A DNA stretch of 64,000 nucleotides from Patescibacteria group bacterium (GTDB taxonomy: Bacteria; Patescibacteriota; Minisyncoccia; Phycocordibacterales; XYD1-FULL-46-19), in NCBI GenBank assembly GCA_048617235.1, contig JBMCHT010000004.1, positions 46,107-110,106 on the forward strand, read 5' to 3'. Of this stretch, positions 10,065 to 12,123 are shown piece by piece. Both the position numbers and the translations under genes were made by a program. Under the pieces are notes generated by a model. The model was given only the letters and a program-made list of their open reading frames with translations. It had not been told where the DNA came from and searched no databases. Positions within the stretch are counted from its first letter, which is position 1. Each line of letters begins with the position of its first letter.

Positions 10065-10085
10065 TGGCGGAGAGGGCGGGATTCG
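10065..10085 (-). repeat. 21-22-bp direct copy of the tRNA-Ser 3' end (attL-like)
   Basis: TGGCGGAGAGGGCGGGATTCG is identical to 12010-12030 (the 3' end of the intact tRNA), in the same orientation. Confidence 0.7.
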
Positions 10086-10191
10086 GCGTCAGCTCACCTC
10101 GCTATAATTCTGCGCTACGCTTGAATTCTAGCGGGTGGCTCCTGCCCGGGCTCAGCCGGTGACATTTTTTCAAAATGTCCGGCTTCCGCCT

Positions 10192-10363
10192 TTCGAATCC
10201 CGCCCTCTCCGCCAATTTACAATTTCAGCATTTTGGGGAGAGATTGCCTCGGCGCTACGCGCCTCGGCAGGCGCGCTTCGCGCGCCAAAGTCCCATTTTG
10301 CGAGGATTTGCCACGCTCCGCGTGGCGAAAAGGAAACGGCTTGGTTTTGGATTTGGAAGTTCG
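10192..10363 (+). repeat. left inverted repeat (~172 bp, GC-rich)
   Basis: About 95% identical to the reverse complement of 11861-12033. The outer tip TTCGAATCCCGCCCTCTCCGCCAA is tRNA 3'-end-like. Contains the perfect palindrome GGCGCGCTTCGCGCGCC at 10270-10286. Confidence 0.85.
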
Positions 10364-10470
10364 TTTGGGCAAAGCCCAAAGTTCCGCAAAGCGGAACCAA
10401 CCAATCTTTTTTCGTTTCGCCACAGGCGAAACACGGAAGCGATAATTTTTAATATTTTGACTGCCTCACT

Positions 10471-12123
10471 ATGACAAAGAATCAAACCAGAAAGTTTTTC
10501 ATCTACGCCCGCAAAAGTACCGATACCGAGGATCGGCAAGTGCGGAGCATTGGCGACCAAATTTCTGAACTTCGGGAATTGGCGCAAAAAGAGAATGTGG
10601 AAATTGTGGACACTATCGTTGAAAAGCAAACGGCAAAGAAACCTGGTCGCCCCATGTTTGCCGATATGTTGAAAAGAATTGAAGCGGGCGAAGCAATGGG
10701 AATTTTAGCGTGGCACCCCGATAGATTGGCGAGAAATAGCGTGGACGGCGGGCAAATTATCTACTTGGTAGATACTGGTGTCATCCAAGAGCTAAAATTT
10801 CCAACTTTCTGGTTTGATCCGACACCGCAGGGAAAGTTTATGCTCTCAATCGCTTTCGGGCAGTCAAAATATTATGTTGATAATCTTTCGGAGAACATCA
10901 AGCGCGGACATCGCCAAAAGTTGAAGCAAGGGTTATGGCCTCAAATGGCTCCGCTTGGATATTTGAACAATCGGGAAACAAAGCAGATTTATGTGGACAA
11001 AGAGAAAGCTCCGCTCATCAAAAAGACATTTGAGGCTTACGCTTCGGGAAACTACACCCTGAAAAATCTCCGAAAGATTATCAACGGGCTTGGTTTGCTG
11101 GGGCAACGAGGCGGATTGCTTTCCACTTCAAATTTTCAGTATCTTCTACAAAATCCGTTCTACTACGGCGTTATTCGCTACAACGGCGAATTATACGAAG
11201 GAAAGCACGAACCGATTATTACAAAGAAACTTTTTGACCAAGTGCAGGAAGTGATGAAGCGAAAGAGCAAACCGCAGAAAGCGGATAAGATGAAATTTTT
11301 TCTTTATCGCGGATTTTTCAAGTGCGGCGAGTGCGGATTTACAATCACCGCCGACAAAAAGATAAAACCGAGCGGAAAATCATACACTTATTACTACTGC
11401 ACCAAGAAAAATCCGCGCCACGACTGCTCGCAAAATGTCTTTACGCGAGAAGAAAAAATTTCATCTCAAATCAAAACGGAAATTCAAAAAGTTTCTTTGT
11501 CTGACGATTGCGCTGATTGGATGTTGGCGGAAATTGAGAAAGAGCAGAAAGTGACGGCGCAATCGTCTCGCTCTTTTGCTCAAAAGCATGAAGCAGAACT
11601 TTCAAAACTTGATGAGAAACTGGACAAGCTGATGACTGCCTATCTTGAAAGCGCGCTAAATGTCCGCGAATACCAAGAGGCAAAAAACAAGCTCATCAAC
11701 CAAAAACAAGTTTTGAAAGACAAATTGAACGCTTTTGAGCAAAAAAGCAATAATCGGTTCGAACTCGCCGCCCAATTCATAAAAGACAGCAAACAAGCCA
11801 AAATTATCGCTTCCAAAGAAAATCCCGAAGGGATTCGGGATTTTCTAAAAAAGATTGGTTCGAACTTTCAAATCCAAAACCAAGCCGTTTCCTTTTCGCC
11901 ACGCGGAGCATGGCAAATCCTCGCAAAATGGGACTTTGGCGCGCGAAGCGCGCCTGCCGAGGCGCGTAGCGCCGAGGCAACATCCCCCCAAAATGCTGAA
12001 ATTGAAACTTGGCGGAGAGGGCGGGATTCGAACCCGCGGTCCGGTTGCCCGGACACTCGCTTTCCAAGCGAGCACGATCGACCACTCTGTCACCTCTCCT
12101 TAGGTAAACACTTACAGTTATAA
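10471..12123 (+). CDS. large serine recombinase (resolvase domain, recombinase domain, zinc ribbon, coiled coil)
   Basis: N-terminal resolvase catalytic domain (FIYARKST, with the Ser nucleophile, and the GDQ region). A Cys4 zinc ribbon (CGECGF...YYYCTKKNPRHDC). A long coiled-coil C-terminus. The ORF has no stop codon before the right inverted repeat; the last ~85 codons read through that repeat and the complement of tRNA-Ser. Confidence 0.85.
   Translation: MTKNQTRKFFIYARKSTDTEDRQVRSIGDQISELRELAQKENVEIVDTIVEKQTAKKPGRPMFADMLKRIEAGEAMGILAWHPDRLARNSVDGGQIIYLVDTGVIQELKFPTFWFDPTPQGKFMLSIAFGQSKYYVDNLSENIKRGHRQKLKQGLWPQMAPLGYLNNRETKQIYVDKEKAPLIKKTFEAYASGNYTLKNLRKIINGLGLLGQRGGLLSTSNFQYLLQNPFYYGVIRYNGELYEGKHEPIITKKLFDQVQEVMKRKSKPQKADKMKFFLYRGFFKCGECGFTITADKKIKPSGKSYTYYYCTKKNPRHDCSQNVFTREEKISSQIKTEIQKVSLSDDCADWMLAEIEKEQKVTAQSSRSFAQKHEAELSKLDEKLDKLMTAYLESALNVREYQEAKNKLINQKQVLKDKLNAFEQKSNNRFELAAQFIKDSKQAKIIASKENPEGIRDFLKKIGSNFQIQNQAVSFSPRGAWQILAKWDFGARSAPAEARSAEATSPQNAEIETWRRGRDSNPRSGCPDTRFPSEHDRPLCHLSLGKHLQL
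11861..12033 (-). repeat. right inverted repeat (~172 bp); its outer 24 nt are the 3' end of tRNA-Ser
   Basis: Reverse-complement match to 10192-10363. Contains the palindrome GGCGCGCGAAGCGCGCC at 11944-11960. Confidence 0.85.
12010..12099 (-). tRNA. tRNA-Ser (anticodon GGA), class II with long variable arm
   Basis: Minus-strand sequence is GGAGAGGTGACAGAGTGGTCGATCGTGCTCGCTTGGAAAGCGAGTGTCCGGGCAACCGGACCGCGGGTTCGAATCCCGCCCTCTCCGCCA. It has a 7-bp acceptor stem, an anticodon loop TTGGAAA and a long variable arm. The T-loop is GTTCGAATC and the 3' end is an encoded CCA. The D-stem has one A/C mismatch. Confidence 0.7.

Follow-up and report, generated by a model that had tools for sequence, protein, structure and literature searches.

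A large serine recombinase cassette between a tRNA-Ser 3′ end and a tRNA-mimicking element in a Patescibacteria contig

Introduction

What kind of element consists of one large serine recombinase (LSR) gene held between long inverted repeats and set exactly at the 3′ end of a tRNA gene? The question is raised by an island near position 10,000 of a 64-kb stretch of contig JBMCHT010000004.1 (assembly GCA_048617235.1, Patescibacteria group bacterium). We refer to this whole stretch as the window; positions are those of the window, and the order of the locus is read on the minus strand unless stated otherwise. An earlier sequence-only reading had proposed a minimal tRNA-Ser-targeting element bounded by direct repeats of the attL/attR kind or, as an alternative, an invertible switch (attP, attL and attR serve as loose labels throughout). 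The sequence features it described are all present, displaced by 1 nt at most, and its view of the island as a foreign element driven by an LSR at the tRNA-Ser 3′ end holds.

The two interpretations fare less well. We consider it reasonably probable that the locus is a composite of three parts: the tRNA-Ser gene, a cargo-less recombinase module from a Patescibacteria family of LSR elements that use tRNA 3′ ends, and a pre-existing structured element, here called Z. As judged from sequence, the two copies of the 22-bp direct repeat are the tRNA 3′ end and its mimic in Z, not an attL/attR pair.

Results

One recombinase gene lies between inverted repeats at tRNA-Ser(GGA)

The locus runs tRNA-Ser (12099–12010), core, P′ arm, recombinase gene (antisense), promoter region, P′ arm, core, Z (10213–10064) and host DNA. 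The tRNA-Ser(GGA) at 12010–12099 on the minus strand is intact (ARAGORN; Rfam RF00005, 52.5 bits) and is the only tRNA called in the window; its terminal bases (CCA) come from the cassette arm. A second ARAGORN call, a “tmRNA” at 12010–12517 (minus strand), was rejected as spurious, since it borrows the tRNA-Ser 3′ end and extends into the htpX open reading frame (ORF; 12153–13052). GC content is 0.43–0.62 in the island against 0.18–0.32 in the left flank.

The recombinase cassette (~12015–10209) comprises one LSR gene between inverted 148-bp P′ arms, each ending at a CCGCC core. The right inverted repeat (11861–12032) is made up of the P′ arm (11861–12008), the sequence CCGCCAA that includes the core, and 17 nt of the tRNA T-loop, T-stem and acceptor strand. 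In its core CCGCC (12011–12015, minus strand), the final acceptor bases are joined to the discriminator G and the beginning of CCA. The left inverted repeat (10192–10363) has the same build, with a P′ arm (10216–10363), CCGCCAA (10209–10215) and 17 outer nt that are the reverse complement of the Z 5′ helix strand and hence resemble a tRNA 3′ end. A repeat search and mismatch map gave 172 nt at 96% identity with 7 mismatches, which is more diverged than in most family members. The outer 24 nt correspond to the tRNA 3′ end, and the repeat measures 172 rather than 148 bp because both flanks carry tRNA-end sequence in opposite orientation. The right P′ arm codes for the last ~50 conserved residues of the recombinase, and the left repeat is, as had been recognised earlier, an inverted duplicate of the 3′ end of that gene. 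An Rfam search of the repeats found nothing.

A gapped and weaker continuation of the repeat reaches inwards (10399–10412/11847–11860 and 10435–10449/11800–11814) and is broken by a 35-nt insertion at 10364–10398. This insertion, which holds two small hairpins, the decayed continuation and a weak promoter-like site (10417–10446) form the upstream region of the recombinase gene (10364–10470, plus strand).

The recombinase gene itself (10471–12123, plus strand, 550 aa) is the single real gene of the island, with neither a second gene nor a tyrosine recombinase ORF between the repeats. The profile search suggested by the sequence-only reading recovered all three domains in this ORF: PF00239 (E = 2e-19), PF07508 (E = 1e-15) and PF13408 (E = 3e-9). 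The YARKS catalytic motif is present and is invariant in the alignment of homologs, and the closest solved structure is the C-terminal domain of A118 integrase (4KIS, E = 2.7e-9). In an AlphaFold2 model of a homolog with the C-terminal tail described below, long paired helices at 345–448 fit the inserted coiled coil of LSR architecture. The protein thus combines the catalytic resolvase, recombinase and zinc-ribbon domains of an LSR with the inserted coiled coil. The island is not an IS607, Tn4451 or phage integrase module, in line with the earlier reading, which had not recognised its architecture from these systems; the hallmarks of IS607 and Tn4451 were not found in the island, which shows no such domains, no second gene and a CCGC core instead of GA. 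Nor does it resemble a Hin/Gin invertase, being a 550-aa LSR whose gene lies within repeats of 148–172 bp.

The ORF is intact and 82–91% identical to the recombinases of L001–L012, the first of the related loci introduced below. It crosses the right repeat and the core and then reads the whole tRNA in antisense, which supplies a “T-type” tail of 36 codons at its end. Homology to relatives stops at ~12006–12014, at codons W-R (TGG CGG), which are the core.

Two further features lie within the coding region. A perfect 18–20-nt inverted repeat at 10876–10894/11067–11085 (GTTGATAATCTTTCGGAGA / TCTCCGAAAGATTATCAAC), with copies 172 nt apart, occurs at the same positions in L001, L007, L012, L014, L022, L025, L041 and others, although these loci are only ~80% identical. 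Such retention beyond what codon conservation would lead one to expect suggests a functional hairpin. A conserved 30-nt palindrome (..AAAATCCCGAAGGGATTCGGGATTTT.., encoding ENPEGIRDF) at 11817–11846, near the inner edge of the right repeat, shares its position with most relatives.

The recombinase belongs to a large family at tRNA-Ser 3′ ends

We scanned one genome per species for related loci, confirmed 570 and examined the best 80 (L001 onward); at the protein level more than 7,700 homologs were found, and the best 120 were analysed. These 120 are 42–92% identical to the window recombinase, nearly all at least 60%, and the named ones come almost entirely from metagenome-assembled genomes (MAGs) of Patescibacteria/Candidate Phyla Radiation (CPR) bacteria. 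Many homologs at 75–92% identity cover only 93% of the window protein, and many sit on contigs of 1.8–2.2 kb.

The gene converges on the 3′ end of a tRNA-Ser in 54 of the 80 loci (GGA 19, GCT 14, TGA 12, CGA 9) and on a tRNA-Gln in four. Two loci have a tRNA-Ser on both sides (L004, L065) and two on the upstream side only (L021, L033); the contig ends too early to tell in 12, and no tRNA was called in the other six. Inverted repeats of 120–175 bp with 95–100% identity flank the gene in most of the 80. The window copy falls within this family by its identity of at least 60%, its convergence on tRNA-Ser, its P′ arms ending in CCGCC and an ORF that runs through the core. Several genomes contain two copies at different tRNA-Ser genes, and unoccupied tRNA-Ser genes are found beside occupied ones in L010, L022, L023 and L026. 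In a tRNA-Gln subfamily (L059 and L079, also L048 and L071), the arms begin with CAACC, the tRNA-Gln 3′ end, in place of CCGCC, so that the core appears to co-evolve with the target.

The sequence-only reading had allowed for inverted repeats that are an assembly artefact, that is, a collapsed or chimeric repeat in a short-read MAG. The window does derive from a MAG contig, and the Logan assembly contig of the same run breaks at about the outer edge of the repeat. The two repeat copies nevertheless differ at 7 positions, and the architecture recurs in dozens of independent assemblies, among them OY969413.1 (L066), a 993-kb record deposited as a complete chromosome. Because this record and copies with diverged repeats share the same layout, we regard an artefact as scarcely credible.

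The repeats do affect assemblies. Many MAG contigs (L002, L009–L011, L023, L029, L038, L039, L054, L069, L075 and others) stop inside the left repeat or within ~130 nt outside it, and in Patescibacteria assemblies the family breaks contigs systematically. Carrier contigs have in several cases been assigned to Gammaproteobacteria, Bdellovibrionales, Planctomycetales or other phyla, which is probably mis-binning. A phage origin was considered and rejected, as IMG/VR yielded a single relative when searched with single-sequence patterns.

Typical members carry a second, cargo-bearing module and cross over inside CCGC

The typical order in the family is tRNA, core, P′-recombinase-P′, core, X-cargo-X, core and host DNA. 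In ~45 loci the outer edge of the repeat falls exactly at CCGCC(A), in which the final two nucleotides of the acceptor precede the discriminator G and CCA. On one side the core is preceded by the tRNA and on the other by X, which is conserved between genomes and therefore belongs to the element. X is one arm of a second inverted-repeat pair of 100–314 bp with 98–100% identity, and these pairs enclose a cargo segment of ~1.5–2.3 kb (L022, L042, L050, L052, L066 and L070 in both respects). The far X partner lies ~2 kb further out and ends in X-CCGC, beyond which the host DNA is unrelated. The cargo of L022, L042, L050 and L066 includes a gene for a 65–70-aa XRE-type helix-turn-helix (HTH) protein beside one X arm, and is otherwise variable (methyltransferases, membrane proteins, zinc-ribbon/TPR proteins); of these four, L042 alone has the module reversed. 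Arms are near-perfectly identical within an element and diverge by 10–25% between elements, which points to ongoing exchange between the two copies of an arm.

Modules can also be chained. At ~1320–1492 of L022, a P′ arm from another subfamily, and not host DNA, adjoins the far X arm, and L058 has a second recombinase cassette with its own repeat pairs (5635–8997) just past the tRNA-Ser that the first element abuts.

Identity breakpoints in L042, L052, L066 and L070 place the tRNA-core-P′, X-core-P′ and X-core-host junctions all inside CCGC. Since the three junction types share this breakpoint, the crossover must lie in CCGC, and the candidate crossover dinucleotides include CG and GC, both of which are self-complementary. 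In serine integrases such as Bxb1 and phiC31, a self-complementary central dinucleotide abolishes polarity; by analogy, a loss of polarity would fit modules that lie in either orientation.

Position profiles were computed from arms aligned at the core. In the tRNA arm, GGTTCGAATCC (T-loop) occupies −18 to −13 relative to the central CG, and in the X arm GTTCGAAT (motif GTTCGAA) is displaced outwards by 5 bp; the correlation between the profiles is highest at an offset of −5 (0.42, compared with 0.16–0.31 elsewhere). In the LI integrase, the motif bound by the zinc-ribbon domain lies 5 bp nearer the centre in attB than in attP (PMC3783163, Rutherford et al.). Judged by this matching offset, the tRNA arm looks attB-type and the X arm attP-type. 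A related motif in P′, AATTCnGATTT, stands nearer to the core than the X motif by ~4 bp, with a weaker correlation (0.37). Family junctions hence share a short core and have distinguishable element-type and target-type half-sites, as LSR integrative elements do. The window cassette is not bounded by an attL and an attR in this sense: tRNA-type arms stand on both of its sides, and the X arm, the tail and the HTH/cargo module are absent from this copy, with no X arm anywhere in the 64 kb.

Homology of the window to other elements begins at 10209 (CCGCCAATTT), except with L004, which has a tRNA on that side and where it begins at 10192. The 108 nt at 10086–10193 have no match among the 80 family loci. 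When considered as a decayed X arm or cargo, this segment gave local alignments to 15 X regions that were no better than those of shuffled sequences, and we rejected that assignment.

The outer copy of the direct repeat is a strand of the Z closing helix

An exact 22-nt direct repeat, TTGGCGGAGAGGGCGGGATTCG, was found by repeat search at 10064–10085 and 12009–12030, and a third, inverted copy is present at 10194–10215. The chance expectation for an exact 22-nt repeat in 3 kb is ~1e-7, so that coincidence is excluded. Copies of the tRNA 3′ end at both ends of the island had been read as attL and attR. The outer copy (copy “A”, 10064–10085, minus strand) proved to be the 3′ strand of the P1 helix of Z plus CCA, beyond which lies AT-rich native host DNA, and the 22-bp hairpin 10064–10085/10194–10215 is, by its sequence, the closing helix of Z.

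Z (10064–10213, minus strand) spans 150 nt and has three conserved arms and a structured, RNA-like appearance. P1 (10194–10213 paired with 10066–10085) mimics the tRNA acceptor and T stems, and the 3′ end of Z copies the tRNA 3′ end including CCA. One related genome, L097, keeps the htpX-tRNA-Ser(GGA) synteny without a recombinase, and is too distant for base-by-base alignment of the intergenic region. There, ~55 nt past the tRNA-Ser(GGA), an inverted copy of the T-loop, T-stem and acceptor strand of this tRNA is followed by AAGACGGAGCCGG; the window counterpart at the same position is AAGGCGGAAGCCGG.

A first metagenome pattern with 23 specified bases gave 0 matches. A relaxed 18-base pattern gave 120 loci, mostly chance matches, of which ~20 had the motif 50–150 nt downstream of a tRNA, namely tRNA-Arg, -Ala, -His, -Tyr, -Trp, -Ile, -Leu, -Glu/Ser or -Ser. 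None of the 120 fetched loci contained a recombinase homolog (tblastn). Z is 105–160 nt long across loci. In tRNA orientation it starts with a 5′ strand complementary to the T-stem/acceptor 3′ strand of the local tRNA, followed by TTCGAAAGRCGGAGCCGG, a variable hairpin, CGGCGAGTCCGGGNAGG, a second hairpin, ..GAC(N)CCGAATCC and a direct copy of the 3′ end of the same tRNA. Because Z follows many different tRNAs with no recombinase nearby, we do not regard the direct repeat as an attL/attR pair.

The same evidence bears on the main proposal of the sequence-only reading, spelled out here as a 1,945-bp segment, 10086–12030, that is a self-contained module, was inserted in the T-loop of tRNA-Ser, brought a replacement 3′ end and displaced the original to 10064–10085. 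Such a module would have the classic geometry of tRNA-targeting islands; the exact 22-nt repeat starts at the T-loop CG, and a 16-nt direct repeat in L014 starts at the same position. We nonetheless think it improbable and already largely refuted. Copy A together with the adjoining 108 nt (10064–10213) is a member of the Z family, which creates the same repeat geometry at tRNA-Arg, -Ala, -His, -Tyr, -Trp, -Ile and -Leu in loci that lack the recombinase. Among the scanned related recombinase loci, L014 alone has a direct copy of the tRNA 3′ end, and its hairpin resembles a deleted Z. Family junctions, moreover, lose identity at CCGC, at the extreme end of the tRNA and not in the T-loop.

Several results support a conserved structure for Z. 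An alignment of 16 Z sequences (A2) has 27 consensus pairs, 18 of them with compensatory changes. Paired cells amount to 94.4%, compared with 78.1% in shuffles (0/500 reach the observed value) and 27–44% when the 3′ partners are slid by 1–3 columns. A G-U pair in 11 of the 16 sequences points to an RNA transcribed in tRNA orientation. The window Z folds at −94.1 kcal/mol (z = −11.1) and has its inner hairpin in common with L173 and L197. A covariance model built from A2 scored the window at 103 bits, the window having been in the seed alignment. It also found copies after a tRNA-Ala in L003 (2074–2198, 39.9 bits), after a tRNA-Arg in L069 (2610–2742, 22.7 bits) and after the syntenic tRNA-Ser(GGA) in L097 (19.4 bits). 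In L020 a Z (1885–2010, 33.3 bits) lies at the right end of a recombinase element, which adjoins the tRNA-like 3′ end of Z instead of a tRNA. Further Z loci are L115, L129, L138, L149, L157, L158, L160, L166, L173, L174, L197, L202 and L210.

Rfam detected only tRNAs and one rRNA in 12 Z-bearing loci, and nothing relevant at E ≤ 10 in 10030–10250 of the window. Z may be a new class of tRNA-linked non-coding RNA or a miniature tRNA-targeting mobile element. In L003, a tRNA-Gly (3439–3510) has a 13-nt inverted copy of its own T-arm strand 15 nt downstream; the Z covariance model makes no call there, and this may be a degenerate Z or a different hairpin.

The recombinase reading frame crosses the recombination site into alternative tails

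The core is read as W-R (TGG CGG), and the reverse complement of X extends this frame by 15–19 codons. The resulting X tail comprises 17–21 residues counted from W-R, with the consensus W-R-[YC]-x-L-[DV]-[EK]-[IV]-[RL]-x-[FY]-F-x-x-N-P followed by a stop. A tail ORF lies beside the left P′ arm in 49 of the 80 loci (37 distinct sequences). Entropies at its three codon positions are 0.46, 0.47 and 0.99, the third being twice the other two, and the ratio of nonsynonymous to synonymous polymorphism (pN/pS) is 0.32 in frame and 0.97 in both other frames. Codon entropy and pN/pS indicate, at the level of coding constraint, that the X tail is translated in some state of the element.

Antisense tRNA-Ser read-through (..NWRRGRDSNPR..) forms the C-terminus of 62 of the 120 homologs, and the X tail that of 17; the C-terminus is undetermined in 28 and truncated in 13. 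Both tail types occur within single protein clusters of 90% identity, on identical P′-encoded sequence. L081 has the order tRNA-Ser (plus strand), P′, promoter, recombinase, P′, X tail and, with repeats of only 89.6% identity, leaves no doubt about the assembly. In L082 the recombinase, X tail, HTH gene and five cargo genes are co-directional. An AlphaFold2 model of a tailed homolog (mean predicted local distance difference test score, pLDDT, 65) has a disordered linker at 489–505 and a helix at 506–527 (pLDDT 75–81), and does not show a docking site for the tail. Flipping within one population was considered from L091 and L089/L090, which are 99.9% identical and in opposite states; these were not used as proof, as perfect 155-bp repeats exceed the MEGAHIT k of 141 and make the joins untrustworthy.

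The second proposal of the sequence-only reading, an invertible switch, stands in so far as relatives occur in both orientations (L081 and the two classes of C-terminus), but nothing except the recombinase lies inside the segment. A switch serving the host, in which the recombinase flips the 1.5-kb segment to regulate a neighbour such as tRNA-Ser or Z, would account for the 172-bp inverted repeats around the gene as well as for both orientations across the family. It seems very unlikely to us, because the tRNA stays intact in either orientation, the alternative orientation in the window would give a similar junk tail (ORF 10170–10400), and the family behaves as a horizontally spread selfish element with many tRNA-Ser targets and several copies per genome.

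A possible history of the window copy

The sequences show the anatomy with its arm duplications, the family distribution, the choice of target, the position of the core and the constraint on the tail, and they contain both recombinase joints and both cargo orientations, in different genomes. The family targets the extreme 3′ end of tRNA-Ser, or rarely tRNA-Gln, with crossover in CCGC. A single arm, present as inverted copies, stands at both ends of each module, P′ around the recombinase and X around the cargo, and with such symmetric ends a module can take either orientation while the junction types stay unchanged. Flipping the recombinase module would then swap the C-terminus of the enzyme between the antisense-tRNA tail and the helical tail encoded by X. 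We infer that the LSR, rather than RecA or homologous recombination, flips the modules; the tail may alter the activity or directionality of the enzyme, and the free form would be a circle with two inverted junctions.

In the window, the cassette lies between two inverted tRNA-end-like half-sites of attB type, one being the real tRNA 3′ end and the other the Z 5′ helix strand. L004 and L065 parallel this, with tRNA-type arms on both sides of the cassette that belong there to real tRNA-Ser genes: the two genes are convergent at 53–142 (plus strand) and 1955–2044 (minus strand) in L004, and at 3783–3870 (plus strand) and 5498–5587 (minus strand) in L065. This layout is expected if the inner junction of an element recombined with a second tRNA-Ser, and the family may thus cause inversions or deletions of the chromosome between tRNA-Ser genes. 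The spacer between tRNA and Z, 50–150 nt elsewhere, is gone in the window, perhaps through a double-site exchange or through one-site insertion followed by deletion. A cassette placed between tRNA end and Z, with the spacer lost, would explain the 172-bp repeat, the 22-bp direct repeat and the 22-bp hairpin together. Lacking an X arm, the window copy would be unable to make the tailed enzyme and would have no partner for canonical excision. By its sequence it is probably stranded; it could still invert through the 172-bp repeats and probably cannot excise.

Discussion

The earlier description of the island as a self-contained minimal element is right in that it contains one gene only, but the copy is a stripped-down member of a family that normally has a second module with cargo. 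Several observations weigh against the composite we propose. Contigs that run through perfect repeats exceeding the assembler k-mer in length could be mis-joined. A comparison with related genomes recovered no true empty site for this species; exact protein matches were confined to the source MAG and to Logan contigs of the same run, the nearest htpX homologs are only 72% identical, and L095 lacks synteny. Canonical LSR rules do not predict the site pairs that module flipping requires, and X-core-P′ may be a hybrid site instead of a canonical attP. Finally, the window ORF is intact and 90–92% identical to relatives, so the copy need not be dead.

This last point bears on the possibility that the core-P′-recombinase-P′-core cassette is an autonomous mobile unit, moving as a palindromic-site circle or by double-site exchange, with the window copy active and X/cargo a separate passenger. 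Cassettes with tRNA-type arms on both sides occur at least three times (window, L004, L065), many 1.8–2.2-kb contigs match exactly this unit, and the P′ motif has approximately tRNA-type spacing with that of X 4–5 bp further out, as if the ends were attB-like and attP-like. We give this only a minor chance: the X tail, conserved and subject to purifying selection, is encoded by the other module, which argues that the modules co-evolve, and no palindromic circle junction was found. Assemblers also produce 1.8–2.2-kb contigs at inverted repeats, and the window repeats have diverged by 4%.

Starting from the composite of tRNA, module and Z, a broader synthesis can be put forward tentatively, although we think it unlikely. 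It would be a modular, orientation-free LSR system at tRNA-Ser 3′ ends, with recombinase and cargo cassettes bounded by inverted site arms. Every integration, excision or flip would rewrite the C-terminus, from the tailed to the read-through form or back, and so act as a self-encoded directionality switch without a separate factor, and Z RNAs would serve as alternative landing sites.

The recombinase family and Z are both apparently undescribed: we found no description of either in the full-text literature, the coverage of which is incomplete, so that an earlier one may exist. The family is large (570 confirmed loci and thousands of proteins) and belongs to a radiation whose mobile elements are barely known; its repeats explain many Patescibacteria contig ends beside a recombinase gene. 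Control of activity by the tail swap, if real, would be a new answer to serine-integrase directionality, and reversible integrases that need no factor are sought for genome engineering. The tRNA-Ser 3′ end and the element arm shifted by 5 bp are candidate attachment sites for hundreds of orthogonal enzymes. Independently of the recombinase, Z is a candidate new class of tRNA-linked structured RNA, and its covariation support is strong.

The recombinase protein itself is an ordinary LSR; target, site-spanning gene, duplicated inverted arms and minimal content set the element apart. Phage and integrative and conjugative element (ICE) integrases of the large serine type (A118/LI, Bxb1, phiC31, SPbeta SprA) share with it the three domains PF00239, PF07508 and PF13408, the inserted coiled coil, a short common core and the 5-bp offset between target and element half-site motifs. 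The family differs from them in using the last bases of a tRNA as target, in a recombinase ORF that spans the recombination site and in inverted arm duplications of 120–314 bp that bracket each module, so that an intact element-type junction persists inside the integrated element. It also differs in lacking phage or conjugation genes and any recognisable directionality factor in the loci examined.

Small serine recombinases and transposon relatives (Hin/Gin/Cin, TnpX/TndX of Tn4451/Tn5397, IS607) have in common with it the serine catalytic domain and inversion or transposition. Unlike the present enzyme, Hin, Gin and Cin are small (~190 aa), have a C-terminal HTH and 26-bp sites, and are encoded outside the invertible segment. 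TnpX and TndX elements carry large cargo between GA-dinucleotide ends and lack long inverted repeats, and the TnpA of IS607 is a small MerR-type serine recombinase usually accompanied by TnpB.

Genomic islands in tRNA genes that use tyrosine integrases (Islander/TIGER) and tycheposons likewise integrate at a tRNA and regenerate its 3′ end from the element. Their identity block runs from the anticodon loop or T-loop to the end of the gene, whereas here there is no tyrosine integrase and the block measures 4–6 bp at the extreme 3′ end; the long direct repeat of the window stems from Z.

The closest parallels come from other classes of enzyme. In the yeast 2-micron plasmid (FLP/FRT) and in plastid flip-flop, long inverted repeats split the element into two segments and orientation isomers coexist. 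The likeness to our family, two long inverted repeats with the site and the recombinase in one segment, is one of analogy only: FLP is a tyrosine recombinase on an autonomous plasmid, whereas here a serine recombinase is integrated at a tRNA, with no replication gene in the loci examined. In SSV-type archaeal viruses, attP lies inside the integrase gene, which is split upon integration. The two systems are alike in that the recombination site is within the recombinase gene and integration changes the product. The SSV-type enzyme is a tyrosine integrase split mid-gene, whereas in the family described here only a tail of 17–21 residues is exchanged and a spare, inverted 3′ end of the gene is retained.

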